Position numbers and translations under genes: made by a program
Shown: positions 4,331-20,988 of the stretch, piece by piece
How positions within the stretch are numbered: the first letter of the stretch is position 1
How the letters are laid out: each line of letters starts with the position of its first letter
The notes under the pieces: generated by a model
What the model saw: only the letters and a program-made list of their open reading frames with translations
Databases searched by the model: none
What the model was told of the DNA's origin: nothing
DNA from: a virus
DNA length: 20,988 bases
Virus record (IMG/VR): IMGVR_UViG_3300027863_001748
Strand: one strand, 5' to 3'

Positions 4331-4750
4331 TTGGCTGACGTTTCAGGCAAAACGTGGATGGCAATAGGCGAAACAGACGACCCATACGCTGTCATAGAAC
4401 GTTTCGAAGCTGCAGCAGCAATAACCAAAGGCGACCCAGTCTATCTAAGCGCAGACGACAAGGTCAGTCCCGCAACATCTGCTCAAGACTGCATAGGCAT
4501 CGCAGTGCAATCAGTTGCTTCTGGAGCCATGTGTCCCGTTCTGATTCGTGGAAGAATCAAAGTGAAAGCTGGTGGCGCAATAACCCGTGGCAAAGCAGTC
4601 TACGGAGCAGATGCAAGCAAAAGAGTCGTAGCATTAGCTGACATAAACGAAGGCGGATCCTCAACGATTTCTTGGACCAGAAAACTCGGGTGGGCTCTCG
4701 AAAACACAACAGCAGCAGACGACCTGCTCTTCATCATCGTGGAGAAGTGA
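4331..4750 (+). CDS. Capsid cement/decoration protein (DUF2190-like)
   Basis: FEAAAAITKGDPVYL...IGIAVQSVASG...VLIRG.IKVKAGGAITRGKAVY pattern; between protease and MCP. Confidence 0.7.
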   Translation: MADVSGKTWMAIGETDDPYAVIERFEAAAAITKGDPVYLSADDKVSPATSAQDCIGIAVQSVASGAMCPVLIRGRIKVKAGGAITRGKAVYGADASKRVVALADINEGGSSTISWTRKLGWALENTTAADDLLFIIVEK

Positions 4751-4755
4751 CAAAC

Positions 4756-5709
4756 ATGAAGCCTAAACTATTTGAAAGCCTCACGCAAAAAGACGGCGAA
4801 GTCAAGGAATTCTACGAGAACGTAAAAGGCAGAGCAACAACACACCCGTTCTTCAAACGCTATGCTGAAGTTGGAATAAAAGAAGGCTTGTTCAGCGACA
4901 TGGCTGGCGCACTAGGCAAGATGCATGACACGCTCATAGAAGCTGCTTATCCCGAAATGATAGGCAGAAACATCATCAACGTCAAACCAACAACCGAAGC
5001 CCTAGAACGATTCCCACTCGACGAAAAAGCTGTAGCCTACCTCTACACAGAAGGCTCAATAGCGAGATTATCTGGCAAGAAAATAAGCACCATCGACATT
5101 CAAACCAACACCTTCGCAGACGCTTCAGAAGAATGGACACGCGAATTCGCAGAAGACGCAACATGGAACGTCATGGACAACATGGTTGAAAAAGTCGGCA
5201 GAATCTTGGGCGAAACCGAAACAAACAAGATACTAGCGCTTTACGGAGCCATCGCAGACGCAGACCTAGCTGGTGGCGCACCAATTGCAGGCGGTGGAGC
5301 AGCCTTAAGCTGGGCTGGTCTCCTCAAGCTTCACAATGCCGTGCGTGGTGAAAACTGGCGCCCCTCAGTGCTTGTGGTGCATGAGACGCAACTGCATCAA
5401 CTGCTAAATGACGACAAGTTCATTCACGCCCAATACTTGCCTTCTGGACAAACCGACATTGAACGCGGAATCGTTACAAGCGTTTTAGGCATGAGAGTTC
5501 AAGCAAGCACGCTTGTGCCTAACGGAACGGCTTATGCGATTGATACTCGAGTGGCAGCAGTCATGCTTCTGCGCAGAGACGTTACTGTCGAAGACTGGGA
5601 AGACCCGAAAACTGGCAAGTTTGGAGTCAGAGCGACCACAAGGTTCGGCATGGGAGTCTTACGAAGCAAAGCAGTTGCCAAAATGACTAACATAAGCACA
5701 AGTCTGTAA
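4756..5709 (+). CDS. Major capsid protein (HK97 fold), 317 aa
   Basis: Start reassigned to ATG 4756 (GGAGAAGTGA SD, 5 nt after the previous stop). MCP-like segments include DNMVEKVGRILGETETNKIL, VLGMRVQASTLVP and DVTVEDWED...GVRATTRFGMGVLRSKAVAKM. Confidence 0.85.
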   Translation: MKPKLFESLTQKDGEVKEFYENVKGRATTHPFFKRYAEVGIKEGLFSDMAGALGKMHDTLIEAAYPEMIGRNIINVKPTTEALERFPLDEKAVAYLYTEGSIARLSGKKISTIDIQTNTFADASEEWTREFAEDATWNVMDNMVEKVGRILGETETNKILALYGAIADADLAGGAPIAGGGAALSWAGLLKLHNAVRGENWRPSVLVVHETQLHQLLNDDKFIHAQYLPSGQTDIERGIVTSVLGMRVQASTLVPNGTAYAIDTRVAAVMLLRRDVTVEDWEDPKTGKFGVRATTRFGMGVLRSKAVAKMTNISTSL

Positions 5710-5730: not shown

Positions 5731-6009
5731 GTGCTCAAACAAACAAGCTTTCAAGGCAAATGCTCACGATGCGGTCGAATCTACCATAGTCAATACAGAA
5801 CTGATATCATAGTCTGTGATTGCTGGCGAAAATGCCCCCTATGCGGAGCTGAGATGCAACCGTACACGCCTGATCCAGCAAGTAACACTTACGGCAAAGA
5901 TGACAAACGCGAACTAACCATTCTAATGGTCTGCAACAACACCTCAGAACATCCGTCCAATTCCCAATTTTACAGCACACAAAAACCAGTCGAAGTCGAA
6001 CTGACATGA
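5731..6009 (+). CDS. Small Cys-rich, probably Zn-binding protein
   Basis: CSRC, CDC, CPLC and a late C...H; ATGA overlap with the next gene. Confidence 0.65.
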   Translation: MLKQTSFQGKCSRCGRIYHSQYRTDIIVCDCWRKCPLCGAEMQPYTPDPASNTYGKDDKRELTILMVCNNTSEHPSNSQFYSTQKPVEVELT

Positions 6010-6248
6010 AAAAATTCGAGGAGAAACTAACCCTCGCAAAGATTCTTTTATTTCCGCTTAGCAGACAGCCTCTACGCAGAAAACAGCTTGAAACCATAGC
6101 CTTCAGAAAGTCTGCAACACACGCCACTTTTGAACCCATGTTCAATTTTCTCGTTCAGAAGGGATTGATACAGAAAAGCGAGCAGAGACACACCGCTCCT
6201 TACACTATAACAGAGAAAGGCAAGAAGTTTCTGGAGGGCCTTCCCTGA
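6006..6248 (+). CDS. Winged helix-turn-helix DNA-binding protein
   Basis: C-terminal FLVQKGLI...YTITEKGKKFLE is typical of archaeal winged-helix proteins; 80 aa. Confidence 0.7.
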   Translation: MKKFEEKLTLAKILLFPLSRQPLRRKQLETIAFRKSATHATFEPMFNFLVQKGLIQKSEQRHTAPYTITEKGKKFLEGLP

Positions 6249-7483
6249 GCAGTGTTTTAAAGCGGATTGTAGACGCTCTTTCTCGTTCGCCTTCGGCTGG
6301 CATCTCCTCTCCAAGTCAGCAAACAGTTTTTGAAACTTCGGTTATTCCGCTTGCTGACGTCATGAGGCTGTATGAAAGAGACCCAACATGCAAATCTAGC
6401 GTTGACTTACTCAGCGCTGCTACTGTGGGAATCGGTTTCTACACGACCTGTGAAGGCGGTTTTGAAAAGGCTAAACAAGTGATTGACGATTTCAATGAAG
6501 AGGTCAATCTTGACGGCCTTCTTAACCAGATGGTTTCACGTCTGATCGCTTGTGGAAACGATTTCTGGCTTAAACTGGTTCCAGACAAGCTTGAGGATTT
6601 GCGTAGGCTTCCGATAGACTCCATAGAGAAAATTCAAGAAAGCTTCATAGAAGGCAGCAATCTGAAGATTCCTTACAAGGTTGAAGGCTACAAACTCAAA
6701 TCTTCCTATGGCGGTGGAAGCCTCGACCCAAAGGCTGTTTTGCATTGGTCGATAGGTTCAGAGAATCCATGTGGATTTGGAGTCGGTGTCTTGCAAGTTC
6801 TTTTACACACTTTGACCGTTAACAATGATAAACGCCCTTCGTATGCTTGGATGAAAGCCAAAATCGAGCGGTTAATGCCAAAAATATTCGAGAGATACGC
6901 CGCTCCAGATGTTGTCGTTCAGTTGGAAGGACAGAAAGAGGACACCATTAAGAAGTTTGAAGCCAAAATCAGAAACAGATCCGAAGAAGGAGCATGGATC
7001 TTCAGCGGCGCTAAGACCGCAAGCGTCAACAGTGTAGCCATAGACCCAAGAGCCAGCGGTTTCGCACCCTACATCGACCACATGGTTAACCAGTTCTATC
7101 TCGGATGCGAGACTCCTCTTCCACGCCTTTTCAGCACACCTGGCTTCACAGAAGCTTCAGCCAATGCGGCTCTTGACCTTCAAAGCATGCTAATCAAACC
7201 TTTACAACGGTATATCAAGCGTCAAGTAGAAAGGGAAATCTTCGCGTTGGTTTTGTCGCAAGCTGGCTTTAACCCTGCAGAGGCCAAGGTGCGACTGAAT
7301 TGGGGTTCTCCAGAAACGCCTGAAATAGTGCCCACTGACTTGATTAAAGCGGCTGAACAGAATCTCATTCGCCCTGAAGAGTTCAGAAAGAATGCAGTTA
7401 AGGTTTTGAATTGGGAACTCTGGGACGAGCAACCCAAAGATTCTGCTTCTCAACAGTCAAAAGGAGGTGAAAACAAGCATTGA
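6245..7483 (+). CDS. Portal protein (probable CTG start at 6245, 412 aa; track start ATG 6362)
   Basis: Portal-like segments LYERDPTCKSSVDLL, LIACGNDF, VLHW, GFGVGVLQVL, CETPLPRLF and ALDLQSMLIKPLQRYIKRQVE. The frame is open to CTG 6245, which overlaps the upstream TGA (CTGA), with GGAGG at 6233-6237. Confidence 0.75.
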   Translation: MSSVLKRIVDALSRSPSAGISSPSQQTVFETSVIPLADVMRLYERDPTCKSSVDLLSAATVGIGFYTTCEGGFEKAKQVIDDFNEEVNLDGLLNQMVSRLIACGNDFWLKLVPDKLEDLRRLPIDSIEKIQESFIEGSNLKIPYKVEGYKLKSSYGGGSLDPKAVLHWSIGSENPCGFGVGVLQVLLHTLTVNNDKRPSYAWMKAKIERLMPKIFERYAAPDVVVQLEGQKEDTIKKFEAKIRNRSEEGAWIFSGAKTASVNSVAIDPRASGFAPYIDHMVNQFYLGCETPLPRLFSTPGFTEASANAALDLQSMLIKPLQRYIKRQVEREIFALVLSQAGFNPAEAKVRLNWGSPETPEIVPTDLIKAAEQNLIRPEEFRKNAVKVLNWELWDEQPKDSASQQSKGGENKH

Positions 7484-7734
7484 ATCCGTTAAATATCGGC
7501 TTGGGAGTCGTTGCAGCGTTAATCTATGCCTTCTTGGGCTACTCAGCACAGGACAAGCCTTTCGACTGGAAAAAGTTTCTGCGGACAGTTGCCATAGGCA
7601 CGTTTTCAGCGTTAGGCTTGGATTTGGCTGGCTTGACCTTTGACGTCTACACCGCTCTAGTGGGTCCTACAGCGATAACAGTGTGGCTCACAAAACTGGT
7701 TGACACTGCAAAACCCGAGCCCATACCGAAATAA
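7480..7734 (+). CDS. Small membrane protein, holin-like
   Basis: 84 aa with 2-3 hydrophobic segments separated by the charged loop QDKPFDWKKF; TTGA overlap with the portal stop. Confidence 0.5.
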   Translation: MNPLNIGLGVVAALIYAFLGYSAQDKPFDWKKFLRTVAIGTFSALGLDLAGLTFDVYTALVGPTAITVWLTKLVDTAKPEPIPK

Positions 7735-7797
7735 CGCATGAAATCTGAAGCATCATCACCGTTTTCCAGTTTTAAGGCTCATTGGAGAAAATGACGC

Positions 7798-8199
7798 TTG
7801 TCTGTTCCATGGGGGCAATATGCGGAAGCATACAAAGCGATACATGATAAGTTAGTGGAAATTCTTGTCCAGCTCTCAGTAAAAATTGAAGATGCAAATC
7901 AATACACAGGCACATATGCTCCTACTGGTGCAGGCTCTACAACTATTGTTTCATCAGTTTCAGGCAAGACTATCAAGATTTATGACTTTTATCTCTGGAA
8001 TAGCGGAACAGCAGATGTTGGTGTTCGCCTCTACTTTGGCGCAAGCGGAAAAAATGTCTTTAAGGGAAAGTTGGCAGCGAAGACAGGCGTCATTCGAAGC
8101 ATGGTAAGGCATTGGGAAAGCAATGCTGATGACTCGCTTGTTCTGTATTTGGACGCGGCTGGAACTGTTGATTATGGTGTAGGAGCAGTGCAAAGCTAA
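7798..8199 (+). CDS. Hypothetical beta-rich protein, probable virion component
   Basis: 133 aa; N-terminal helix followed by a G/T/S/V-rich beta pattern; inside the structural operon. Confidence 0.55.
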   Translation: MSVPWGQYAEAYKAIHDKLVEILVQLSVKIEDANQYTGTYAPTGAGSTTIVSSVSGKTIKIYDFYLWNSGTADVGVRLYFGASGKNVFKGKLAAKTGVIRSMVRHWESNADDSLVLYLDAAGTVDYGVGAVQS

Positions 8200-8200
8200 A

Positions 8201-9325
8201 ATGCCTACGGTGTCAAAGAACCCTTGGCAAACAGAAGTTATTGTTTCGGGCTGGAATTATCCAGAAAGAGCTTATGGAGAGGATGGAATAAACACTTATG
8301 CAAGTCCGCCAGATGAAAGCACAAAGCCTGAGCAAAAATACTCTGGATTTAACTTCACAGAAAGCGACATTCCACCAAGCAGTCAAATAACTAAAGTTGA
8401 AATGGGAGCAAAACACTACGAGACAGATCCAAGCGGATACATTCAATACACGACTCTGAAACACGTAAACTCCTTAGGGTCAACATCTACATATCAGTTG
8501 ACAAGACGAACATCCTTAACATGGGACTGGATAGACATAACAAGCAGAGAAACAAGCTGGGATCTAGCAAAACTAAACAATGCTGATGTCCGCATAATTT
8601 CTGAAATCCACTCGGCAGGTGGAGGCGGAGGCTGTAACCCTACAGATGTCTATTTTTTGGGAAAGGATGAAGGGGGGTGGATAATGCGTAGAGCAAAAGA
8701 GCTTAAAGAAGGTGATGTCCTTCTGGCATGGCACCCAGAAAAAGGTCTAATCTTCTCAAAAGTCAAGTCTATACAAAGCTTCACAGGATTGCAGAAACTT
8801 ATAACACTGTTCTTACCCAAACTCAAGTTTCCAAGCTTGTCTAAAAAGGGTGAAATATTCGAGTGGCAGCCTCACTTAACTGTGACAGGACAGCATCAGC
8901 TTTATTTTGCAAAGAAAGGCAGCAGACGAGGCGAGTACGCTTGGTTCATGCTCAAGTCTGAAGAGTTGCACACTCGTATGATGTCCGGAGAGAAAGACTT
9001 CTATGTCGGGACGCTATGGAAAGCTGAAACGTTAGCACCCTTACCTCTTGAAAGGGTCGACCTCCACGAAAAAGTTGAAACCGTTTACAAAGTCACCCTA
9101 ATCGATGAAGCAGCCACATTATTTGCTGACCAATACTGGCATGAAGATTTGGCGTTGCTTAAAACACATGGTTACGGATTGCGGGAAACACCTATGTCAA
9201 TGCCATTGCTCAGCCAACTGCTAAAACAAACATCGTACGTTGACACTATAGTTTTGCGTGCAACGTACGCTTTGCTTAAGGAAATGCAGATAACAGGAGA
9301 AGGGTTGACTTGTGTCATAGCCTAA
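8201..9325 (+). CDS. Probable virion/adhesion beta-sandwich protein interrupted by a Hint (intein-like) domain
   Basis: GGGGG|C145 N-terminal junction, block B LTVTGQH and block F VYKVTL...LFA; the host domain resumes at TSYVDTIVLRATY. Confidence 0.7.
   Translation: MPTVSKNPWQTEVIVSGWNYPERAYGEDGINTYASPPDESTKPEQKYSGFNFTESDIPPSSQITKVEMGAKHYETDPSGYIQYTTLKHVNSLGSTSTYQLTRRTSLTWDWIDITSRETSWDLAKLNNADVRIISEIHSAGGGGGCNPTDVYFLGKDEGGWIMRRAKELKEGDVLLAWHPEKGLIFSKVKSIQSFTGLQKLITLFLPKLKFPSLSKKGEIFEWQPHLTVTGQHQLYFAKKGSRRGEYAWFMLKSEELHTRMMSGEKDFYVGTLWKAETLAPLPLERVDLHEKVETVYKVTLIDEAATLFADQYWHEDLALLKTHGYGLRETPMSMPLLSQLLKQTSYVDTIVLRATYALLKEMQITGEGLTCVIA
8633..9229 (+). other. Hint / mini-intein-like domain (Cys145 to about Gln343), no homing endonuclease
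   Basis: Cys1, TxxH and block F present; proposed C-terminal junction LLKQ|T. The C-terminal boundary is uncertain. Confidence 0.65.
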
Positions 9326-9378
9326 CGCCAGATAAATCCGTCTTTAATCGAAAGAAGTCCTACCGCAATACGCTTTGA

Positions 9379-10149
9379 CTAATATCTCCGAAATGGAGCT
9401 TCCTTGATCGAGTCTATTCCTCTTCTGGAATCTGGCCAATGGTATATTACTAGCCTAGAATCTTTTTCCATTTTAGCCAGTTCGTCCTGAAAATAGGGAA
9501 TCCGCCTTCTGTCAAGTGCATCGAGAAGAATGAAGAATGCATTTCTAGTAATGCTACTCTTGAGACAAGCTTCGAGTTTTCTAATATCTTCCCTTACTCC
9601 ATCTTCGTAAAACGTTCTTCCCCAACCAGGCAATATCATCTTGATCTCAATCATTGCCTCATAAGGTGGAAAATCTGTTTCATTTCGCCATGCCTTTTTG
9701 AACTTATTATGATCAATCACGACAAGATCCGCACGTCGTGTTCGCGGCCATTTCTCTGTCCTCACGTACTTAGGTCTCTCTATACTGCCTTCTGCATGAA
9801 CACACCATTCCGATCCAATGGAACGAGATACTGTCCTTTTCCTAAGATGACTATACAATGCCCATTGCACATCTCGTTCATTCCAATAATAAGCTCCGCC
9901 ATAGTTCTCGTCCAGATGAGAATTTTGTCTGTAATCTTTCAAAAAGTGTTTTATGCAAGCTTCAACTGCCAGTGCCTTCTTGCTTCTTCGTGGCAAATTC
10001 TCAACCAATTTTACAAGAACACTCGTTAAGCCTTTAACTTTTTTCACATTAGGACAATTGTTGAAAAAGACAAGTATGTTAAGATTTCCAAATCCAAGTC
10101 TTACGGTTTCTGTTTGAATCACTTGTTTTTCATGCTTATTTTTCAGCAA
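9379..10149 (-). CDS. PD-(D/E)XK-fold nuclease-like protein, antisense insertion in the structural operon (true start possibly TTG 10008)
   Basis: NERDVQWAL helix, RADLVVI, IEIK and EDIRKL match the E-PD-ExK arrangement; AT-rich 5' flank. Confidence 0.6.
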   Translation of the reverse strand: MLKNKHEKQVIQTETVRLGFGNLNILVFFNNCPNVKKVKGLTSVLVKLVENLPRRSKKALAVEACIKHFLKDYRQNSHLDENYGGAYYWNERDVQWALYSHLRKRTVSRSIGSEWCVHAEGSIERPKYVRTEKWPRTRRADLVVIDHNKFKKAWRNETDFPPYEAMIEIKMILPGWGRTFYEDGVREDIRKLEACLKSSITRNAFFILLDALDRRRIPYFQDELAKMEKDSRLVIYHWPDSRRGIDSIKEAPFRRY

Positions 10150-10215
10150 GATTCCTTATGTTTACCGTTTTTCCCATTTTATTTTGAATTTAGAGCTATT
10201 TGAGGTCTAAAGCCG

Positions 10216-10569
10216 TTGGTAGACGTGTCTGCTGATGATGTTCGAGATGTTATAAACGTTAGTTCAGCGGATATACCTGATGATAAGATTCTGAAGATGA
10301 TTAAACGTGCAGAAGTCACGCTTGAACTTGAAACAGGCAAAGACATAGACTATAGCGAATGCTCAGATGCTGAAAAGGAATTCATAACGGTTCTTGCTGC
10401 CGTCTATGCTGTCTGTTATCTTACTGGTGGTTCAGCAGTTGGCTTAAGCTTCACAGTAGGCGACCAAAACGTCAACATTCTAAGCAAGGCTCCACCGTTG
10501 GATGTGCTGCAATCTGAGTTAGAGCGAATCTTGCGCAGTCTTAAACTGCCTTATGTGGGGAGTGCTTGA
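10216..10569 (+). CDS. Head-tail adaptor (gp6/gp15-like)
   Basis: 117 aa, helical; VSADDVR...IPDDKILKMIKRAE...SFTVGD pattern; first neck gene, preceded by GAGGT. Confidence 0.65.
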   Translation: MVDVSADDVRDVINVSSADIPDDKILKMIKRAEVTLELETGKDIDYSECSDAEKEFITVLAAVYAVCYLTGGSAVGLSFTVGDQNVNILSKAPPLDVLQSELERILRSLKLPYVGSA

Positions 10570-11960
10570 TGGTAACAGTGCCTGAAGCCTACTACCAATT
10601 CATAATGGATTATGCGCCTTACGTTTACGTGATTCCGCCAGACACTCCAGACCCAGCTTGGGGAAGAGCAGCCTTTGCCGCAGCCTTCGCCATCGACTTC
10701 CTCTCCGAAGCCTATAACAGTAAGCAGTTTGAAAACAAAAAAACAGACATCTACAACAAAATCGTGAATCTCGCCGACTGGATTCTAACCCAACAATGCA
10801 CAGACCCAGCCAAGAAAGCTTATGGCGGATTCAAAAGCAACGAAACAAGCACATACTATTACAGCGTTGACGCTTGCCGAGTCATCCCGTCGCTTCTACG
10901 AGCCTACGACGTGACAAACGATGAGGATTATCTGAATGCTGCCAAGCTTGCCGGAGCCACGTTTCTCAAAACCATGCAGGATCAACAAGCCTATGGCGGA
11001 TTCGCAAGAGCCGTCACAATCGCAGACGCTTGGCTTTTGCAAATGGATGTTGAATGTCTCTATGGGCTTATAGGTTTGAAGATGCTTGCTGAAAAATACG
11101 ACACAGCCAACGCCTCAACGTATGAGGACATAATGAACAAGGCTGCCAACTTTCTCAGGCAAGGACTCGAAAACCTCTGGCTATACTACGACCCTGCAGA
11201 TGACAAATGGCACAGAATCGGTCTAAGCGAAAACGAGATTTACGATGACCCCTTCGCTTACGCTTTGCTCGGCTTGTATGAATACGAAGGCTGGAGCCTC
11301 ACATGCCAAAAAATCTACAACTTCATCAACTCAATCCGAGCAAGCGCCCAATACCCCGCCTACAACCCCGCAGTCTGCTGGGCAGGCTACATAGACGTAA
11401 TAAGCCGATTCGCAGCATGCGACTACTACGATGCAGTCACAAGCGGAATCCTCTGGAAAATCCGCAAAGCTCATGACAAGCCAAGCTTTGAATTTAGCAT
11501 GAAAATTATCGACAAGCATCAAGATGAGTTTATGTTCTGGGGCGCCAAGCACACAGACTACAGCTATGTGGAAAACAAGAAGGCGATGGCAACCGTATGC
11601 TGGCTTTCTCTCCTCTATCTAAACTACGAGGAACCGACAACACGTTTCAAGCAAATCCTCCGCTCAAACGGAGAAAACATCACATTATACCAGATCCGTG
11701 AAGCCTCAGAACAAACCAGCTACGGCGAAGACATAGACATAAAAGCCATAGTCTCACCAGCAAGAGCAGAAGAAACCCTCATAGAACCTGGCTACATCCT
11801 AAACGACTACATAACCATCCACGTCTTTGCTCCCATCAGACATCATGACAAAATCCGCAGAAAAGGAACAGACTACGAGGTTCTGGACCTTCAAACTTTC
11901 GATTTCCGAGGCGAAACAATCTACTTCAAAGCATACTGCAGGAGGCTTCTCGGACAATGA
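10566..11960 (+). CDS. Fusion of an alpha/alpha-toroid domain (six-hairpin glycosidase or prenyltransferase-like) with a C-terminal head-closure/stopper-like domain
   Basis: Helical repeats with LADWILTQQ...YGGF and FLKTMQ...YGGF. The last ~110 aa are beta-rich (GENITLY...IKAIVSP...HHDKIRRKGTDYEV...YFKAYCRRL) and occupy the stopper position between adaptor and terminator. Confidence 0.6.
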   Translation: MMVTVPEAYYQFIMDYAPYVYVIPPDTPDPAWGRAAFAAAFAIDFLSEAYNSKQFENKKTDIYNKIVNLADWILTQQCTDPAKKAYGGFKSNETSTYYYSVDACRVIPSLLRAYDVTNDEDYLNAAKLAGATFLKTMQDQQAYGGFARAVTIADAWLLQMDVECLYGLIGLKMLAEKYDTANASTYEDIMNKAANFLRQGLENLWLYYDPADDKWHRIGLSENEIYDDPFAYALLGLYEYEGWSLTCQKIYNFINSIRASAQYPAYNPAVCWAGYIDVISRFAACDYYDAVTSGILWKIRKAHDKPSFEFSMKIIDKHQDEFMFWGAKHTDYSYVENKKAMATVCWLSLLYLNYEEPTTRFKQILRSNGENITLYQIREASEQTSYGEDIDIKAIVSPARAEETLIEPGYILNDYITIHVFAPIRHHDKIRRKGTDYEVLDLQTFDFRGETIYFKAYCRRLLGQ

Positions 11961-12943
11961 GCGAGTCGGAAGATCCAACAGCAACAGTTGTTAGGCTTTT
12001 GCAGAAGAACATCCGAGTAGTCAAAGAAGACAATTCAATCGCAAGCATTCTCGTAAGCCAAGAATGGTATGACAGAGAACTTTTCAAAAACTATGATGGA
12101 CAAATAACCGTAGGTCTCGTAGAAAGCAGAGACACAAAAATCGAAATGTCTGGACGAATCCGCAGACGCTTAGGTTCTCTACGAGTCAACGTATGGGCTA
12201 CTGACAAGCAAGGGTCATCTGACAACGGCAAGCAGATCAGAAATAAGACCGTTGAAGAAATAAACCGCGTCATAAGACAAAACCGCAACAAACCCAACAC
12301 GACAGAATACAACTTCGCTGGTTTAGGCTATCCAGAAGGCGACCCCCACAAGGCGTTCCAAACAGGCGCAGCCTCAGAGCTTCAACCAGAACATGCAAAC
12401 TGGAATGAGTTAACAAGCTTGGAATATCAGAAAATCTGGTACAGCGATGACCAGAGACACTCTAAATCTCACAATATCAACGGCGAATATGCTCTCATGC
12501 TTTTCCGATTCAAGATTGAAAGCCGAGAAAAAGCTGTCAAGCAGATTGTTTTGTCTTTTGAGGGCTACGGTTCTGCTCCTGTTGGATTCGGCGTCACTGT
12601 AAAAGTTTGGAACCATGTTGCTGGCGCTTGGCAAAATGCTCATTACGGGACTGACGAAGCAGACGAGACCGTAACCATTACGTTAACCTCAAACTTGACG
12701 GATTACATCGATGATGAGCAGTACGTATGGCTTCTAGCTAGAACAACGAATCCAAGCGATGGAATGACATCAGCCATCTTATACTGCGACTATGCATGTT
12801 GCACGGTCACCGTCAACGGCATAACATACTTGGACATTGTCAGTTTCCGAGACGCCGACCGAGTGGATACTAAGCCCTTCATTTACAGAACCGAGTTTAC
12901 GCTCAAATCATGGTGCTTTGAAGATGTTGGAGGCGTTTTCTAA
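11957..12943 (+). CDS. Tail terminator/completion protein with a ~170-aa inserted beta-sandwich
   Basis: Directly upstream of the tail tube. LRVNVW...EEINRVI and the C-terminal FRDAD...RTEFTLKSW bracket an insert at about 12296-12814. Confidence 0.55.
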   Translation: MSESEDPTATVVRLLQKNIRVVKEDNSIASILVSQEWYDRELFKNYDGQITVGLVESRDTKIEMSGRIRRRLGSLRVNVWATDKQGSSDNGKQIRNKTVEEINRVIRQNRNKPNTTEYNFAGLGYPEGDPHKAFQTGAASELQPEHANWNELTSLEYQKIWYSDDQRHSKSHNINGEYALMLFRFKIESREKAVKQIVLSFEGYGSAPVGFGVTVKVWNHVAGAWQNAHYGTDEADETVTITLTSNLTDYIDDEQYVWLLARTTNPSDGMTSAILYCDYACCTVTVNGITYLDIVSFRDADRVDTKPFIYRTEFTLKSWCFEDVGGVF

Positions 12944-12945
12944 AG

Positions 12946-13815
12946 ATGCCAGAAACTTATGGAGCGCATGAATGCCGTGCCTACTTCGTTCAAGAATCAG
13001 TCTACGGTCAGACACCAACAAACCCGTCAATGCTTGGCATAAACAGCGAAGACATTGAACCATCATTAGACCCATGCCTACTCAAATTGCGAGGCGTTGG
13101 CTCCAGAGACCTTCAAGCCTTGAAGAGAGGACTGCGCAATTCAACATTGAAGATTCTGCATGTCTTGTCCAGCGAGGCACCCATATCTTTCGTTCAACAT
13201 GCTCAAACGCTAAACAGCTTAAGCCTTCAAGTGCTGTATTACAAAGGCTTGTTTGCCTCGGCAACCGACATAATAAGCCTACTCTACAAAGGCTGCAGAA
13301 TACACAAACTAAGCGTAGAATGCAGCATAGAAGACATCGTAAAGGCTACAGCCGAGCTTATTGGGCAAACTGTTGAAATAGGGACCTCAAAAATAACAGG
13401 AGCCACCTACGCAGACTACGCGGGAGCGGTTTCTTACAACGAAAGCTATATTCAAAGAGGAGCGGGTGACGGCTCAGGCTTAACCGCACTCGAAAGAGTG
13501 ACAGACTGGAAATTTACAATCGAAAACAACCTCAAGCCAGTGCCAGTAATCCGTAGCGAAGAAGGCTATCTGCTAAAGTATCTTCCAGCACGCCACCGCA
13601 ACCTGATGGGCGAGTTAACCTTCGAGTTTGAGAGCAAACAAGAATACGACGACATCATAAACGACAGTGAATTCAGCCTCAAATTCGGCTTAGGCGGAAC
13701 AACCAGCGCCCTTTTCAAGTATTGCAAATGGGAGAAAGTGGCAACTCCAACACGAATCGAAGACCTTGTCGCCTTGAAGGCTTCCTTTGTTTCAAGAGAC
13801 GTTTACATCAGTTAG
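12946..13815 (+). CDS. Major tail tube protein
   Basis: N-terminal YFVQESVYGQTP, VTDWKFTIENNL, RNLMGELTFEF; 289 aa; upstream of the chaperone and TMP. Confidence 0.8.
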   Translation: MPETYGAHECRAYFVQESVYGQTPTNPSMLGINSEDIEPSLDPCLLKLRGVGSRDLQALKRGLRNSTLKILHVLSSEAPISFVQHAQTLNSLSLQVLYYKGLFASATDIISLLYKGCRIHKLSVECSIEDIVKATAELIGQTVEIGTSKITGATYADYAGAVSYNESYIQRGAGDGSGLTALERVTDWKFTIENNLKPVPVIRSEEGYLLKYLPARHRNLMGELTFEFESKQEYDDIINDSEFSLKFGLGGTTSALFKYCKWEKVATPTRIEDLVALKASFVSRDVYIS

Positions 13816-13831
13816 GATGGAGGCTTCTGAA

Positions 13832-14044
13832 TTGAGTGTTGAAGTGAAAATCTTGGAGAATTTTGGTCAAGAGGCTGACTTGCGAAAGAAATGGTTGAAG
13901 ATGTGGGAAACACTTGGAGTTAGAATTCTCAAGCTTCCAAAGTGGATGCAGGACATCGTGCTTGAAGATGTCAATACAGCCATCAGAAACCGTATAGCCA
14001 CAATGGAGATGATTCAAAACGCAAACAGAAAGCATCGAGCTTGA
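13832..14044 (+). CDS. Hypothetical 70-aa protein
   Basis: TTG 13832 behind GGAGG (ATG 13817 also possible); the track start at 13787 overlaps the tail tube gene. Confidence 0.55.
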   Translation: MSVEVKILENFGQEADLRKKWLKMWETLGVRILKLPKWMQDIVLEDVNTAIRNRIATMEMIQNANRKHRA

Positions 14045-14483
14045 CGAACGATTTGGTAGCGAATTCGCAGGCAAATACGTCTTCAGCGAAATCAGTTGGG
14101 CGAAGCGTAATCGCATCATCCAGAAGCACACTAAGTATCACCCGTTAACGGGACAAGTCGTAAGCAGCGACTTCATTGCTATACAAGCTGAAACCATATG
14201 GGCTTCGCTCAAAGAACAGCCACAACACAAACCCATAACACTCGAAAAACTGCTAAATGAAGAAAACGGGATTTCAATAGGCTTAGGTGAGTTGTTCAGC
14301 CAAATCGTCAACAAGCTGAACAGCGTCACACAAGAGGAAACCGCTTTTTTATCAGAGCGATCCGAAGACAAAAGCCAAACTCAAGCCTCACAGAGTTCCG
14401 CCTCTGCAAAGAATTCGGGTGGACACCACTCCAACTTAGAAAACAGCCAGCCAAAACCATCCAGCAATTCATCACGATTCTAA
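14019..14483 (+). CDS. Tail assembly chaperone (gpG-like), proposed ACG start
   Basis: The frame is open from TGA 14010-14012 with no ATG/GTG/TTG until 14292. Translation (M)QTESIELDERFGSEFAGKYVFSEISWAKRNRII...; GGAGATGAT upstream. Confidence 0.7.
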   Translation, partial: TQTESIELDERFGSEFAGKYVFSEISWAKRNRIIQKHTKYHPLTGQVVSSDFIAIQAETIWASLKEQPQHKPITLEKLLNEENGISIGLGELFSQIVNKLNSVTQEETAFLSERSEDKSQTQASQSSASAKNSGGHHSNLENSQPKPSSNSSRF

Positions 14484-14554
14484 ATGAGATGGACAAGCAA
14501 ACGGAGGAAGAACGCAGAAAAGCGGAGAAAGAAGTAAAATGGCGGTCGAAGTAA
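14345..14554 (+). CDS. -1 frameshift extension of the tail chaperone (gpT-like part of gpGT)
   Basis: In-frame slippery heptamer T TTT TTA at 14345-14351. The -1 frame reads IRAIRRQKPNSSLTEFRLCKEFGWTPLQLRKQPAKTIQQFITILNEMDKQTEEERRKAEKEVKWRSK*, with stop at 14552-14554. Confidence 0.75.
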   Translation, partial: FFIRAIRRQKPNSSLTEFRLCKEFGWTPLQLRKQPAKTIQQFITILNEMDKQTEEERRKAEKEVKWRSK

Positions 14555-14910
14555 CATGCGACGTTGAAGGCATTGAAGAGTTCAAGGTTGCCATGCAGAT
14601 GTTTGATTCTGCGATGCAGAGGCATGTTTATCGCCAGTTGGCAAGTTGGGCTGCAGACGTCAAAGCCTTAGCCAAACAACTCGCTCCTGTCAGAACAGGA
14701 CACTTGCGAAGTTCCATATATGCCAAGATTCAGGACTGGGTCGCCGAAATCGGTGCAGAAGCCACCTACGCATTATTCGTTGAACTTGGCACACGATACA
14801 TGCAAGCATGTCCATATCTTTACCCCGCAATCCAAGAGCATCTTCCAGAGCTTGAACGGATAATCCTTGAAGCCTTAGAAGCAGCAAAAGCGGAGGCTGG
14901 TTTACAATAA
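14539..14910 (+). CDS. HK97 gp10-like tail/neck protein
   Basis: AKQLAPVRTGHLRSSI...YALFVELGTRYMQACPYLYPA motif. Confidence 0.85.
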   Translation: MAVEVTCDVEGIEEFKVAMQMFDSAMQRHVYRQLASWAADVKALAKQLAPVRTGHLRSSIYAKIQDWVAEIGAEATYALFVELGTRYMQACPYLYPAIQEHLPELERIILEALEAAKAEAGLQ

Positions 14911-15452
14911 GCTTCAGAGAAATCGCCGTCACCATAAGAGCCGTTAACCGTGCCAGCAGCGAGTTCACGAGAATACAGACAGACGCTGAAGCATTATCTG
15001 TTCGAATCAAAAGCCTCGGTGCAGCCATAGCTGGTTTAGGCGCCACTGGAACGGCTATTGGACACATAGCCCATCAATTTGGCTTACTGAATGACCAGCA
15101 AGCCAGAGCTTTCAACAGTGCCATGATGGTTGTCACAGTTTTAGGCATGTTCATGAGGACAAGCTGGGGCGTAGCCGTAGCTCAGAAAGTCTATGCTGCA
15201 GCCTGCTGGATCGCTACCGCGGCTCAGAACGCCTTGAATATTTCTTACGCCACCTGGCTCGCCTTAACCGGGGTCGGAATCGCAGTTATTGTTGCTGCAG
15301 CCGCTGCCATGTGGTATTTCGCAAGTCAAATGAACTCTGCAACCGCAAGCGTTCAAAGCTTCAACGAGGCTGTGGCTGAAATGCCTGAACGTGGACGCAG
15401 CATCCGCAGAGTTGGAGAAGAAGAATACTACAGACGGGGGATAGAAGATTGA
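14907..15452 (+). CDS. Very short tape-measure-like protein (181 aa), proposed ATA start
   Basis: 72 open codons upstream of track ATG 15123 give (M)SFREIAVTIRAVNRASSEF, a TMP-type N-terminus, followed by Ala/Gly-rich hydrophobic helices. GGAGG at 14892-14896; ATAA overlap with the gp10 stop; directly before the hub gene. Confidence 0.65.
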   Translation: MSFREIAVTIRAVNRASSEFTRIQTDAEALSVRIKSLGAAIAGLGATGTAIGHIAHQFGLLNDQQARAFNSAMMVVTVLGMFMRTSWGVAVAQKVYAAACWIATAAQNALNISYATWLALTGVGIAVIVAAAAAMWYFASQMNSATASVQSFNEAVAEMPERGRSIRRVGEEEYYRRGIED

Positions 15453-17110
15453 GCAGCGATATTCCAAAGATAGCCATTGCTTTCGGCGCTGTTGCTCCGC
15501 CTCAAGGCGACATCATCGATTTGAGAGTGCACCTAGGCTGTACAAGAGAAGTCAGCAGCTTCGAGTGTCTGCTTCAGAACTGGGACAAGAAATACAGTCC
15601 AAACGGTTCCTACCCAATCAACGTGGGAGTCGACGGGCACATTGACATAGGCAGAAGCACGAACGTTCCGCAGATCATAACGTGTCGTGTTGAAGCTGTC
15701 AAATATGAATCCACACCTAATGAGAATTATTTGCGTGTTTCTGGCAGGTGCTGGGGCGAACGCCTCTTTAGAAGAGTCGTCACCAAAACGTATGAAAACC
15801 AAAAAGGCGAAGCCATCGTCAAAGACCTAATTGACTACTACGTCGGCTTGAGCCATGTCAGAGATTCAAACGAGCTGGTGGAAGACACTGACACCACGTA
15901 CACGAAGCTGGAATACCAAGACACGCCTGTTTTTGACATTCTAAGCTTCATCGCTGGAAGCGCAGACAAAGCTGGAGTCATAGGCTTTGACTTCCGTTTA
16001 GCACCAGACGGAAAATTCGAGTTTTTCCATCGCAACAGCAAAACCTCACCACTCAATCTCAATGACAGAATCGAGTCAAGCGAATACAGAAAAGACATCC
16101 ACATGATAAGAAACAAAATCACAGTCTACGGCGTAGCTGACAAACCCTTCCCAGTGGATGTTGACGGCAGACCTTGGAGCGACACGCTTACCGAGGATTT
16201 AACTGTTAGCGAAGGCACTGGCTGGGGCGGTTCAAACGAACTAATACATGCGGTTTATGGCAAATGGAGCGTTATGACGGGCAGCACAAACCTTGCTTTG
16301 GACACAGCCATTAAGTATGCTGGGGCTAAAAGCGTTAAGGTCATTGAATCAGCTTACATGTATTACACAAGAGTTGACTGGATATTTTATGAAGGCCAGA
16401 CCATAAACCTCAACGAGTTTCCAAAAATCAGCCTTGCACTCATGGTTGATGACAAACATTCTAAGTTCTGCTGGATAAATCTAATCGACATCTGGAACAA
16501 TAGCGCAACAAAAAGCTTCAACCTCTCCAAAATCAACCAATGGGAAAAAGTCGTCATCAACGCTGGACTAAAATATGCTGACGAGTGGGACTGGGTTGAC
16601 GACCTCTTCCGCTGGGACTACGTAAAGCAGATAGGCATAGCAGTCGACCAAGAATACGCAAGCGCAGGAAACTGGTGGATAGACCAGTTTCATTTCGGAT
16701 ACGGCAAATGGAAAAGCACACAAGAAGACACAACCAGCCAAACAACCTATGGCTTAAGAGAACTTGTCGAAGTTGATGAGGAGCTTTACAGCGACAACGC
16801 ATGCACGCTGAGAGCCAAAGCCCTTCTTAACCATCTCAAAAACCCTGCTGAATACCTGACAATAAAAAGCACAGTCATAGACTATGGGAACACGCCTCTT
16901 TTGCCAGGCGACAAAATACATGTGACATTGCCAAACGAGAACATAGACGCAGATTTTCGCATCTTAAGCGTTGAATACCGTGTTGACGCCAAGTCGCAGA
17001 CGCTTGAGGTGACCTTGGAGCTTGGAAGAGAAACACCATTCTTGGCTGATTACCTGTATGCGCTTCGCAGCAAGACAAGCCACTTGAGCAGACATAAAGT
17101 AGCAAGGTGA
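15449..17110 (+). CDS. Baseplate hub/tail tip protein (gpD/gp27/Tal-like) with an inserted carbohydrate-binding-like domain
   Basis: LRVSGRC, IVKDLI, RNKITVYG, EDTTSQTTYGLRE and LLPGDKIHV...FRILSVEY are hub-like. A Trp-rich insert at about 16133-16699 ends WWIDQFHF. Confidence 0.65.
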   Translation: MSSDIPKIAIAFGAVAPPQGDIIDLRVHLGCTREVSSFECLLQNWDKKYSPNGSYPINVGVDGHIDIGRSTNVPQIITCRVEAVKYESTPNENYLRVSGRCWGERLFRRVVTKTYENQKGEAIVKDLIDYYVGLSHVRDSNELVEDTDTTYTKLEYQDTPVFDILSFIAGSADKAGVIGFDFRLAPDGKFEFFHRNSKTSPLNLNDRIESSEYRKDIHMIRNKITVYGVADKPFPVDVDGRPWSDTLTEDLTVSEGTGWGGSNELIHAVYGKWSVMTGSTNLALDTAIKYAGAKSVKVIESAYMYYTRVDWIFYEGQTINLNEFPKISLALMVDDKHSKFCWINLIDIWNNSATKSFNLSKINQWEKVVINAGLKYADEWDWVDDLFRWDYVKQIGIAVDQEYASAGNWWIDQFHFGYGKWKSTQEDTTSQTTYGLRELVEVDEELYSDNACTLRAKALLNHLKNPAEYLTIKSTVIDYGNTPLLPGDKIHVTLPNENIDADFRILSVEYRVDAKSQTLEVTLELGRETPFLADYLYALRSKTSHLSRHKVAR

Positions 17111-17116
17111 AACAAG

Positions 17117-17515
17117 GTGGACAAGCAGCTTTTGAAACAAATCAGAAGCCTTCAGATCGGAGCGCTAGTCCGCGTGGATTGGACAGATGCCTCAATAGGG
17201 AAAAGCCTCAGCGGAGGCTTAGGGGGCATAGATGTTCCAGTCACCAGTTTTGGCATCTTCATAGGAATACTCGGCGAAAAGAACAAGCACATCATATTGG
17301 GTCAGAACCACTTTCGCTATGCAGATGGACTCTACGACATTGACTACACAGCCGTCCCATTGTCATGGGCTGTAAGCATAAAGGTCATCGAAAACCAGCA
17401 CATGAATTCTGAAGAGTGCAAGCAGCTTTTGAACAGCTTTTTGATGGGTGGAAGACGCGTCTTTCCAAATCGGTGCAGACAACAGAAGGTGAGAAACCAC
17501 GACAGACTGGATTAG
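17117..17515 (+). CDS. Hypothetical protein
   Basis: 132 aa; GTG start 6 nt after AGGTGA; beta-rich core LVRVDWTDAS. Confidence 0.65.
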   Translation: MDKQLLKQIRSLQIGALVRVDWTDASIGKSLSGGLGGIDVPVTSFGIFIGILGEKNKHIILGQNHFRYADGLYDIDYTAVPLSWAVSIKVIENQHMNSEECKQLLNSFLMGGRRVFPNRCRQQKVRNHDRLD

Positions 17516-17756
17516 AAAAGCATTAACCAAAACAATACAGCGCAAGGGTTCACGGGGAAAAGAGTACATACTCGTTGTTCAGCCAAACGAGAAGCTTGTC
17601 TATGGAGTCAAGTTTGCTATTGCCATGACTGTCTGTCTTTCAGCCTTAGAAATCGCTCACATGTCTTTCTTAGGCAGTTGGAACAGCGAAGTCTTTGCAG
17701 CCATAACGGGTTTAATTGGAACCATAAGCGGCATTCTAATCTCTCAAAAAACCTAG
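17499..17756 (+). CDS. Small two-helix membrane protein (85 aa, holin-like), proposed ACG start, absent from the ORF track
   Basis: (M)TDWIRKALTKTIQRKGSRGKEYILVVQPNEKLVYGVKFAIAMTVCLSALEIAHMSFLGSWNSEVFAAITGLIGTISGILISQKT*. AGGTGA at 17487-17492; fills an otherwise empty 240-bp gap. Confidence 0.65.
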   Translation, partial: TTDWIRKALTKTIQRKGSRGKEYILVVQPNEKLVYGVKFAIAMTVCLSALEIAHMSFLGSWNSEVFAAITGLIGTISGILISQKT

Positions 17757-17772: not shown

Positions 17773-18108
17773 GTGTATAGTCATAGGCTTAGGGGCAAGG
17801 TAAGACGTGCTCAAAAGGAAGTTGAGACTGGAACGCAAAGGCTCAGGCAGAAGCTGATAACGCAACTCGAATCAATGTTTGACCTGGCTGAACAGTCTGC
17901 AAGAAACGCCAAGACACCCAAACAACGTGAAGGATTCATGCGCATTACAGGCTACATCGCCCAAGTCTTGAACAGCCTCAGCCGCTCTTTCGACGAGGCT
18001 CTGATTAACGAGGAACTGGACCGTTTGGAGAAGATGATTGATGAGGCAATCACAAAAGACAAGGATAAAGGAACTGCAACAGCGGTTCAAGGATCATCTG
18101 GAAGCTAA
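17773..18108 (+). CDS. Putative terminase small subunit
   Basis: 111-aa helical, basic protein immediately upstream of and overlapping TerL; positional call only. Confidence 0.45.
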   Translation: MYSHRLRGKVRRAQKEVETGTQRLRQKLITQLESMFDLAEQSARNAKTPKQREGFMRITGYIAQVLNSLSRSFDEALINEELDRLEKMIDEAITKDKDKGTATAVQGSSGS

Positions 18109-19501
18109 GGCAAAGCGGATTCCAGAAGACTTTGTCAAATTCACAGAGCATATGCTGGGCTTAAAGTTAACCGCTTACCAGAAAGAAGCCGCAGAACTTC
18201 TGAGCAAGAATGATTCTGTTGCTTTAAGATGGAGTAGGCAATCGGGAAAAACGCATTTGATCTCTGCTTGGCTACTGCACTACGCTCTGTTGCATGATGG
18301 TTATCAAATCGCAATTGTGGGTCCTAGCTGGCGCCAAACAAAAATTCCCATAACCAAAATCAACGGATTCCTTACTAGAATTCCGAAAGGCTACTATCAT
18401 AAGTTGCAGCAGACAATCGTTAGGCTGAAGAACCAGTCAGTCATCCAAGCCTTGCCATGTAGCCCAGAAACCGTGAGAGGGTTTTCGTTAAACTGCGTGT
18501 ACATGGACGAAGCCAATTGGATTAACCATGATGAGGAGCTGTATGATGCCATATTGTTTACTCTTGCAACCACTGGAGGCAAGTTTATCTGCAGCAGCAC
18601 ACCAGGCAGCGCCGACAGCCTATTCTGGAAAATCTTCAACAGACCACAATTCGCAAGGTTCGCAAAGAGCCACGTCACATGGGAGCAAGCCTTAGAACCT
18701 AATGGACCTATGAGGCGGAAGTGGCTTGAAGACCGCAAGCAAGAGTATGAGGGCGACCCATGGCGGTGGAAACGGGAGCTTGAGGCAGAATGGGCAGAAG
18801 ACGAGAGCGTCTGGATACCACTAAGCCTCATAACGAAGTGCATTGACAGCGAACTGGAGCTTTGGGATTTTGAAAGCCTCCACAGAGGCAAATTCTATGG
18901 CGGGCTGGATCTTGGCAAGCATCAAGACTATTCTGCATTCATCGTGATCGAAGATGTCGACGGCAAATACTTGCTGAGACACGTGAAAGTGTTTCCGCTT
19001 GAAACAAAATACGCCACAGTCATAGGTTACGTGAAAACCTTAACGGACAGATGGCAGACTTTTGAGAAAATCCGCGTTGACACAACTGGAGTTGGCGAAT
19101 ACATCACTGAGGACATGGCTAATGGCGGAATCGAAAACGTCGAAGCTGTAACCTTCACTAGCAGCAGAAAACAAGAGTTGGCAAGCATCTTGAAGCAGCG
19201 GATGCTGGATGCAGCTTATAGCTTTCCCTTTGTCAACATACAAGTCTCACCGAACAAGAGCCTCAGCTATGTCAACGAGCTTAACATAGAAAAATTCGAA
19301 CTCAGAAAGGACGGGGCACTGCATTTCTCGCACCCGCAAAACCAACATGACGATGTCTGGTGGGCAACAGCATTAGCAATATCCTGCGGAGTAAAACTGG
19401 CTCCAGACCCACTTCTAGCTGTAATACCCAGACGAGGCAACAAACTGCAACAGGTTCGCAAAAAACTGAACAAACGAAAGGTTCTGGGAGTTACGAGATG
19501 A
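18038..19501 (+). CDS. terL: Terminase large subunit
   Basis: YQ motif, Walker A RWSRQSGKT, Walker B VYMDE, coupling motif SSTP, nuclease GLDLGKHQD, VDTTGVG and HDDVWWATALA. Start TTG 18038 or ATG 18041. Confidence 0.95.
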   Translation: MMRQSQKTRIKELQQRFKDHLEAKAKRIPEDFVKFTEHMLGLKLTAYQKEAAELLSKNDSVALRWSRQSGKTHLISAWLLHYALLHDGYQIAIVGPSWRQTKIPITKINGFLTRIPKGYYHKLQQTIVRLKNQSVIQALPCSPETVRGFSLNCVYMDEANWINHDEELYDAILFTLATTGGKFICSSTPGSADSLFWKIFNRPQFARFAKSHVTWEQALEPNGPMRRKWLEDRKQEYEGDPWRWKRELEAEWAEDESVWIPLSLITKCIDSELELWDFESLHRGKFYGGLDLGKHQDYSAFIVIEDVDGKYLLRHVKVFPLETKYATVIGYVKTLTDRWQTFEKIRVDTTGVGEYITEDMANGGIENVEAVTFTSSRKQELASILKQRMLDAAYSFPFVNIQVSPNKSLSYVNELNIEKFELRKDGALHFSHPQNQHDDVWWATALAISCGVKLAPDPLLAVIPRRGNKLQQVRKKLNKRKVLGVTR

Positions 19502-20988
19502 GAAGGAAGCGCGAGTTTTTCCACATCACTAAATATGCACGTCGATATGATAGAAGAGAAGGCAAGTTTGTGATTAACATAAGCTATGAAACTGCTGCTC
19601 CAGAACCAAGTGAGCGGGTTGTTGCTGTTGCGGAAGGCTTCGGGCTGGGGCTTGACCAGTGGCAAAGATTTGTCATTTACGATGATGTTGAACTGAAGAT
19701 AGGATCTACGGACATTGTTTACATAACAGGTGATTCTGGAAGCGGAAAGTCTGTCTTGTTGAAAGCCTTGGAGAAAGATATACGAAGAGACATGGGAACA
19801 AGCTGCATAAATATTGTGGATATTCAGCCTGAACCAAACAGACCGTTAATCGAAACGGTCGGCAAAACAGTTGAAGAAGCATTAGAGCTACTGAGCAAAG
19901 TTGGCTTGAATGATGCATTCCTGTTCCTAAGAAGTTATGAACAACTGAGTGATGGACAGAAATACCGTTACAAGATAGCGAAAATGATTGAAAGCAAAGC
20001 GCAATTCTGGATCATGGACGAGTTTGCAGCCACACTGGACAGGGACACAGCCAAAATAGTGGCATACAACCTTCAGAAACTCGCAAGACAACAAGGTAAA
20101 GCAGTTTTAGCAGCAACAACACATACAGACCTACTTAAAGACTTGAACCCTTCAGTGCATGTTCACAAGCGATTTGGCAAGGAAATAACCGTAAACTACT
20201 ATCCAAACCAACCAGCCAAAGAATGTAGTCTCGTTAAGCAAATGCAAATTAAAGAAGGCACAACACAAGACTGGAGAAAACTCGCAGGCTTTCACTATCG
20301 TAGCCACAAGATAGCTGCGCCCCGAAAAATCTTCTGTCTGAAACGTGGCGAAGAACTGTGCGGGGTAATAGTCTTCAACTATCCGCCACCCACATGCTTT
20401 GGACGAAGACTTATCCTTCCAAAAATGAGCATGAAAGAATTAAACGAAAAGCTGAGCATAATCACCAGAGTTGTCATACATCCCAAATACCGCACGATAA
20501 GCTTAGGCGCAAAGCTTGTCAGGGAAACCTTGCCTTTAGCCGGGACACCCTACGTGGAAATGCCTGCAGTCATGGCAAAATACAATCCATTTGCAGAGAA
20601 AGCAGGGATGAAAAGAATAGCTGAACAGCCACCACCAAAAGAGGCCCTAAGAATTGTGATGACACTTCAACAATTCGGGTTCAACACTCAATTGCTTGGT
20701 AGCACTAGTTACGTATCAAGCAAGTTCAAAACTTTAGACAGCAAAGCTGTTACAGAGATAAAGAATGCATTCAAAAGAAACTATCATATACGCTTTCAAA
20801 AAGCGTTCACCCACCATTTGCCTTTTGGCAAAAGAAAAGCGTATAATCGCGAAATTGTAGATGCCAGCATCGAGAAGCTAGTACAGTTAACCAAAATCTG
20901 CAGTTTCTTAGCCCAAACGAAAGTATATCTTTGTTGGATGGCTTCCACAAAGAGTTCTCAACCAAACTGTCAGAGAATTGGGTACTGA
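19498..20988 (+). CDS. ABC-type ATPase fused to a GNAT acetyltransferase (496 aa)
   Basis: Walker A GDSGSGKS, signature LSDGQ, Walker B WIMDE, H-loop ATTH; GNAT acetyl-CoA motif RVVIHPKYRTISLG. ATG 19498 overlaps the terL stop (ATGA). Confidence 0.8.
   Translation: MRRKREFFHITKYARRYDRREGKFVINISYETAAPEPSERVVAVAEGFGLGLDQWQRFVIYDDVELKIGSTDIVYITGDSGSGKSVLLKALEKDIRRDMGTSCINIVDIQPEPNRPLIETVGKTVEEALELLSKVGLNDAFLFLRSYEQLSDGQKYRYKIAKMIESKAQFWIMDEFAATLDRDTAKIVAYNLQKLARQQGKAVLAATTHTDLLKDLNPSVHVHKRFGKEITVNYYPNQPAKECSLVKQMQIKEGTTQDWRKLAGFHYRSHKIAAPRKIFCLKRGEELCGVIVFNYPPPTCFGRRLILPKMSMKELNEKLSIITRVVIHPKYRTISLGAKLVRETLPLAGTPYVEMPAVMAKYNPFAEKAGMKRIAEQPPPKEALRIVMTLQQFGFNTQLLGSTSYVSSKFKTLDSKAVTEIKNAFKRNYHIRFQKAFTHHLPFGKRKAYNREIVDASIEKLVQLTKICSFLAQTKVYLCWMASTKSSQPNCQRIGY

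Follow-up and report, generated by a model that had tools for sequence, protein, structure and literature searches.

The viral DNA analysed here, a stretch of 20,988 nucleotides (nt) from the IMG/VR virus record IMGVR_UViG_3300027863_001748 (the window), encodes the morphogenesis module of a head-tailed virus, all on its + strand. Four genes of this module, among them the portal gene, appear to begin at near-cognate codons, one base off a canonical start. We predict that these codons (CTG at 6245, ACG at 14019, ATA at 14907 and ACG at 17499) are genuine translation start sites and that the archaeal lineage Bathyarchaeia, in whose genomes relatives of the virus are integrated, initiates on near-cognates; comparison with related loci makes this very probable. 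The four starts had been proposed in a preliminary description of the window and are borne out, in that the frames lack a canonical start and homology begins at these codons. We also put at slightly better than even the chance that the Bathyarchaeia, or at least one family of them, have a widened start repertoire in which ACG, CUG and AUA are ordinary heritable starts, even of the host genes uS3 and NusA, and that their viruses inherit the rule.

Four probable start sites in the window

The frames at all four positions are open and have no in-frame ATG, GTG or TTG at the expected start. The genes and the Shine-Dalgarno (SD) motifs that precede them are the following.

6233-6237, + strand: SD motif GGAGG, 7 nt before CTG 6245
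6245-7483, + strand: portal gene, 412 amino acids (aa), CTG start; assigned by portal families in the ESM Atlas and by Pfam Phage_portal in relatives
14005-14008, + strand: SD motif GGAG, 10 nt before ACG 14019
14019-14483, + strand: 154-aa protein, family not assigned, in the chaperone position after the tail tube gene and named by position; ACG start
14892-14896, + strand: SD motif GGAGG, 10 nt before ATA 14907
14907-15452, + strand: 181-aa protein in the tape-measure position, ATA start; named by position and weak matches to tape measure protein (TMP) PHROGs
17487-17492, + strand: SD motif AGGTGA, 6 nt before ACG 17499
17499-17756, + strand: 85-aa hydrophobic protein, ACG start

Each site overlaps the upstream gene, as had been described. 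The portal codon (6245-6247) shares bases with the TGA of the gene at 6006-6248 in the stop-start overlap CTGA, and the ATA codon does the same with the TAA of the gene at 14539-14910 (ATAA). The overlaps at 14019 and 17499 are 26 and 17 nt long, and both of these frames have a TGA 2 codons upstream; counted together, three of the four sites have an in-frame stop 0-2 codons upstream. The first canonical in-frame codons are ATG 6362, TTG 14292, ATG 15123 and ATG 17625, which leaves 39-91 codons without a canonical start downstream of the near-cognates. The SD motifs of the four sites (4-6 nt, with spacers of 6-10 nt) cannot be told apart from those of neighbours with canonical starts (4-9 nt, with spacers of 6-15 nt), in line with the normal spacing noted earlier. 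At none of the four sites does a change from the canonical to the near-cognate codon alter what the overlapping upstream gene encodes (CCC/CCA Pro, AAC/AAT Asn, TAA/TGA stop and CAC/CAT His, in order of position). This had been noticed at three of them, and the portal site completes the set.

We compared the sites with 240 related loci (L-numbers below) from two viral-contig scans and one genome scan. Each site has relatives, with 40-99% identity, whose homologous codon is ATG, GTG or TTG and follows the same SD, and protein similarity starts exactly there. Relatives align from the near-cognate codon and not only from the downstream canonical starts. CTG at the portal start is also found in L001/L081, L161 and, more distantly, L195, L036, L041 and L035; other near-cognates at this position are ACG (L069/70, L175, L230) and ATA (L180/187/189). 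The homologues of the 14019 gene have canonical starts in 115 relatives and ACG in L083-85, L197, the L042/46/47/114-118 clade, L137/L140 and L185. ACG occurs in at least 4 separate clades of this family's tree, one of which (100% support) is all ACG with internal synonymous divergence, and ATG and ACG toggle between close relatives. ATA at the 14907 start is common to L001/L081, L082-85, L197 and L210, with CTG in L026/L171, ACG in L134, and ATG, GTG or TTG in others. ACG at the 17499 start is shared with L081 and L065, and 52 relatives have ATG.

Each near-cognate of the window recurs in independent assemblies whose neighbouring bases are different, from IMG/VR contigs and metagenome-assembled genomes (MAGs; L001/L081, L161, L197, L083-85, L065). 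Assembly or sequencing error, which had been named as an alternative, is therefore effectively refuted, and we regard its probability as negligible.

The stretches upstream of the first canonical start are under strong purifying selection. The ratio of nonsynonymous to synonymous change (dN/dS) was taken among near-cognate-bearing relatives, for codons from the near-cognate one up to the first canonical start in frame. It is 0.02-0.14 for the 14019 gene (codons 10-40), 0.04-0.19 for the 14907 gene (codons 2-29) and 0.16-0.20 for the 17499 gene (codons 7-42). Synonymous differences (pS) in these three extensions amount to 0.2-1 per site. Shortened genes make up 9 of 836 in near-cognate loci vs 33 of 970 in other loci. 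Because the N-terminal codons are under purifying selection and shortened genes are not in excess, silencing, decay and initiation at downstream canonical codons are all disfavoured.

The first of these, a loss of start codons that leaves silenced genes in a defective or domesticated provirus heading to decay, has some circumstantial appeal: Bathyarchaeia genomes contain many integrated relatives, several to a chromosome, one relative has ACA at the 14019 homologue, and one (L230) pairs a near-cognate with two truncated genes. However, random decay would be unlikely to strike four start codons and leave about 6000 codons free of stops and frameshifts. The selection on the extensions, the survival of ACG through deep synonymous divergence, the lack of an excess of broken genes in near-cognate loci and the use of the same codons at the start of essential host genes all speak against loss, which we consider unlikely. 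The earlier judgement that random decay is improbable agrees with the low dN/dS and with the truncation counts.

Translation might instead begin at the next canonical in-frame codon, as gene callers predict, and give N-terminally shortened proteins. The public ESM Atlas record of the portal does start at residue 40 (ATG 6362), and ATG 17625 could yield a 43-aa membrane peptide. We find this explanation quite doubtful, since the 39-91 skipped codons are conserved with low dN/dS, ATG 17625 has no SD at a suitable spacing (the GGAG is 17 nt away), and the next Met in ACG-started forms of the tail-completion protein Neck1 (below) is a conserved internal residue. With its Atlas record beginning at residue 40, the portal therefore loses 39 conserved residues in automatic annotation.

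Probable near-cognate starts across the virus group

Starts were tabulated in 14 gene families, with positions extrapolated from N-terminal alignments (high-scoring segment pairs). A near-cognate was counted only if no canonical in-frame codon was present upstream as far as the stop or within 5 codons downstream. MAFFT alignment of stop-to-stop open reading frames (ORFs) was rejected as a way of finding start columns; it chose internal Met columns in some families and missed the Neck1 ACG clade. The census contains 1477 distinct starts, 1400 of them canonical and 77 near-cognate only, with at least 24 changes by parsimony. ACG is the most frequent type (58), and ATA (12), CTG (4), ATT (1) and AAG (1) also occur.

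The largest and most stable near-cognate clade in the analysis belongs to Neck1, whose gene starts with ATG in the window. ACG is its start in 38 of 144 distinct relatives, which make up a large and diverged clade drawn from viral contigs and from proviruses in Bathyarchaeia (e.g. L002-L043, L164-L185). Typically the ACG follows an in-frame stop by 2 codons and precedes the next canonical codon by 18. The ACG forms all encode 122-123 aa with ORF length unchanged, and pN/pS is 0.29 over codons 2-19. With a gap of 55-79 nt between these starts and the upstream gene, near-cognate use does not depend on stop-start coupling. For the small gene before the large terminase gene (TerL), which starts at 17773 in the window, at least 10 relatives (L046, L059, L061, L066, L073, L082, L084, L085, L116, L170) align with an ATA preceded by GGGGGGT, and their first canonical codon comes 19-34 codons later.

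These families bear on two further explanations. The first is fusion with the upstream gene by programmed frameshifting or stop readthrough, as in the G/GT tail chaperones. An upstream gene overlaps at all four window sites, and a CAAAAG run (14885-14890) lies in the -1 overlap before 14907. Relatives nevertheless have their own ATG, GTG or TTG at the site, often with an in-frame stop directly upstream, the frame relation varies among the sites (-1, +1), and the ACG starts of Neck1 and uS3 have no overlapping upstream frame. Fusion accordingly seems to us highly improbable.

The second is C-to-U editing of the mRNA, which would restore ACG to AUG and CUG to UUG. Start-codon editing in plant organelles is classically recognised by ACG starts that are conserved at the genome level, and the repairable types, ACG and CTG, account for 62 of the 77 near-cognates. 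The viral codons resemble the organellar ones in being conserved ACG at starts and differ in that ATA starts are not explained by editing; neither the 12 ATA cases nor the clade at the 17773 gene would be repairable. We found no deaminase gene in the window, and neither mRNA editing nor machinery for it is known in archaea. Editing is thus a very unlikely account of these starts.

Near-cognate use differs among gene classes. The families of the major capsid protein (MCP), cement protein and tail tube have near-cognates at 2 of 408 starts vs 75 of 1069 in the other eleven families. MCP starts among relatives are canonical in 139 cases and near-cognate in 2, and tail tube starts are canonical in 126 and near-cognate in none. 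The MCP and tail tube genes of the window begin with ATG (4756 and 12946), as described before. The sole near-cognates among the 408 MCP, cement and tube starts are in proviral MCP genes (L226, L234; ACG and ATT). The bias fits weak starts on low-demand genes and fits equally drift tolerated where demand is low. A start-codon dial that sets virion stoichiometry, suggested in the preliminary description, agrees with the gene-class bias, but an adaptive dial is not distinguished from low-demand drift. Near-cognate use appears to run through the whole virus group and host genes and not to be special to the window virus or to its four genes.

Host genes and the proposed mechanism

In 40 and 20 Bathyarchaeia genomes we scanned the operons for ribosomal proteins and RNA polymerase, roughly 800 starts. 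Antisense shadow ORFs gave false near-cognates in these scans and were removed by inspection. Two events were found, an ACG start of uS3 preceded by AAGGAGGA (two genomes) and a CTG start of NusA preceded by GGAGG (one genome). Among 30 genomes of one Bathyarchaeia family, the uS3 start is ATG in 14, GTG in 7, TTG in 3, ACG in 5 and CTG in 1. The six near-cognate forms fall in at least 3 independent lineages, with in-frame stops 0-11 codons upstream. A class-wide uS3 sample contained one further CTG. All host near-cognates (uS3, NusA) stand behind GGAGG-type SDs and have no alternative in-frame start. The loci are as follows.

uS3: L301-L304, L314, L316, L334
NusA: L299:10566-11000, - strand

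Essential and abundant, uS3 appears to depend on ACG or CTG in these genomes. The ACG and CTG starts of uS3 and NusA in Bathyarchaeia support host tolerance of near-cognates, and with it the earlier suggestion of a host with relaxed initiation (uS3 in 6 of 30 genomes of one family, NusA in one genome). The hosts of the nearest proviruses of the window (G144 and four others) have ATG at uS3, and from the uS3 starts of these five we found no link between the near-cognates of the window virus and the usage of its own host.

We propose that the SD, 6-10 nt upstream, positions the small ribosomal subunit, which would then begin translation on codons one base off the canonical ones (ACG, CUG, AUA), presumably with initiator Met-tRNA. 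One point mutation of ATG or TTG, in most cases a transition, would be enough to create a near-cognate; here such changes leave the product of the overlapping upstream gene unaltered, and they would persist because protein output is still sufficient. Initiation is probably weaker than at AUG, and such codons would then be tolerated or favoured mainly in low-copy genes, such as those for the portal, tail-assembly, tail-length and small membrane proteins. The data fit weak starts selected as a dosage setting and fit weak starts merely tolerated.

Several points weigh against these predictions. The case for initiation at ACG, CTG and ATA comes from sequence comparison. A review of archaeal initiation gives AUG, GUG and UUG as the only starts (PMC7531240). 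The host genomes tabulated are all Bathyarchaeia, and the rate describes that class. The ACA at the 14019 homologue (in L170) is two changes from ATG and may be a real start loss. The families behind the gene-class bias are few and share ancestry, which confounds it. The codons seen (ACG, ATA, CTG) are transition neighbours of ATG and TTG, and their spectrum alone is no sign of selection for particular codons.

Near-cognate initiation itself is known, and the systems nearest to this one differ from it in several ways. The AUU starts of infC and pcnB in Escherichia coli hold protein levels low; these cases are isolated, autoregulated and tied to discrimination by IF3, whereas the candidates here are many unrelated genes with three codon types and aIF1/aIF2-type initiation. 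The ACG start of VP2 in adeno-associated virus sets capsid stoichiometry. Eukaryotic near-cognate initiation includes CUG starts (PMC4705826). The eukaryotic and viral cases are like the present one in their ACG and CUG codons, in the idea of weak starts for virion ratios and in initiation factors homologous to the archaeal ones, but they use scanning and Kozak context, whereas here the SD would place the ribosome on a polycistronic message. GUG and UUG starts of bacteria and archaea (NCBI table 11; PMC7531240) are likewise SD-led, one base off AUG and commoner in less expressed genes. ACG is absent from the starts of table 11, which does list CUG and AUA, codons regarded as rare exceptions; in the present genomes such codons are conserved over large clades and in a ribosomal protein gene. 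Ribosome profiling in Haloferax volcanii found that ~30% of putative alternative initiation sites are near-cognate, and its authors set these aside as possible false positives (PMC7261190). Those sites are not primary starts of conserved genes, and the comparative evidence here concerns main starts of conserved genes.

Our literature search on ACG starts in archaea returned nothing relevant. As far as we found, what is new is the conserved, recurrent primary use of ACG, CUG and AUA that we predict in an archaeal lineage and its viruses. Archaeal starts have been taken as AUG, GUG and UUG, and here conserved viral genes and uS3 appear to have had, for a long evolutionary time, no other possible start than ACG, CUG or AUA. 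If the widened repertoire exists, it would imply a relaxed start-codon check (aIF1, aIF1A, aIF2 or initiator tRNA) that resembles eukaryotic near-cognate initiation, and the genes of these genomes would systematically be cut short or overlooked by current gene callers. If protein data bear them out, these starts would offer a natural system for how initiation of the archaeal and eukaryotic type sets start-codon stringency and a test of whether viruses tune the proportions of their virion components through weak starts. Proteins of Bathyarchaeia and of their viruses would then be truncated by annotation, as in the portal record that lacks 39 residues.

The element and its remaining genes

The window contains Caudoviricetes hallmarks: an HK97-fold MCP, a large terminase, a portal and a tail tube (Pfam Phage_capsid, Terminase_6N/6C, Phage_tube_2). 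The genome scan gave 80 related loci. Almost all of them are in MAGs or complete genomes of Bathyarchaeia, often with several integrated per chromosome; one of the loci with a CTG-started portal (L161) has a portal 97% identical to that of the window. Because close relatives are integrated in Bathyarchaeia genomes, we take the window to come from a head-tailed Bathyarchaeia virus or provirus. The head-tailed viruses of Bathyarchaeia described as 'Fuxiviridae' and 'Kunpengviridae' (PMC10848311) are also Caudoviricetes with an HK97 MCP, portal, TerL and tail tube, and some of them integrate as Bathyarchaeia proviruses; the paper has no mention of start codons. The other genes of the module are the following.

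4331-4750, + strand: cement protein
4756-5709, + strand: HK97-type MCP, ATG start; Pfam Phage_capsid
6006-6248, + strand: small DNA-binding-like gene upstream of the portal gene, its TGA overlapping the CTG; phrog_11046 transcriptional regulator, E 2e-5
12946-13815, + strand: tail tube, ATG start; Pfam Phage_tube_2, E 1e-14
14539-14910, + strand: Neck1/tail-completion protein, ATG start in the window; phrog_5, E 1e-18
15449-17110, + strand: tail protein with a Prophage_tail/YQBQ-like C-terminus
17773-18108, + strand: small gene before TerL, GTG start in the window
18041-19501, + strand: large terminase (TerL), ATG start by N-terminal alignment; Pfam Terminase_6N/6C

The portal label given in the preliminary description is supported, in that the nearest Atlas clusters are portal families and Pfam Phage_portal is matched by 3 of 12 family members (best E 5e-6). 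The portal alignment, used as a profile against PDB sequences, gave no match, and an AlphaFold model from the 12-row alignment had a mean confidence score (pLDDT) of 38.5 and was unusable. The label of tail chaperone for the 14019-14483 protein did not hold up beyond its position, as a profile search gave no match. That of tape measure for the 14907-15452 protein stands on position and on weak matches to four TMP PHROGs (E 0.1-0.2). It is the only protein in the tape-measure position, and its 181 aa would predict a very short tail if it serves as a ruler. No tRNA genes were found in the window.

The genes at 7798-8199 and 8201-9325 are without a homologue in the first 160 related loci (viral contigs), and a reverse-strand gene follows at 9379-10149. 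The region 7798-10149 looks like a variable cargo island within the structural module. On the - strand at 816-2584, a gene for a C5-cytosine DNA methyltransferase overlaps one for an HhH-GPD glycosylase, an arrangement that recalls modules of a methylase with mismatch repair. Deamination of 5-methylcytosine would turn ACG into ATG, and the methyltransferase/glycosylase pair could bear on the toggling between these codons. A long ORF at 19360-20988, with ABC-ATPase/AAA matches and a weak GNAT match, overlaps the 3' end of TerL by ~140 nt and leaves the window.

One Bathyarchaeia chromosome (OY970286.1) has four related proviral portal loci (L167, L171, L191, L204), and several other genomes have 2-3. 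Two further loci (L163, L166) are from JBLNCY01, labelled Methanocella sp. MAG113; this genome groups with Bathyarchaeia in a class-level search, and its NCBI label looks wrong.

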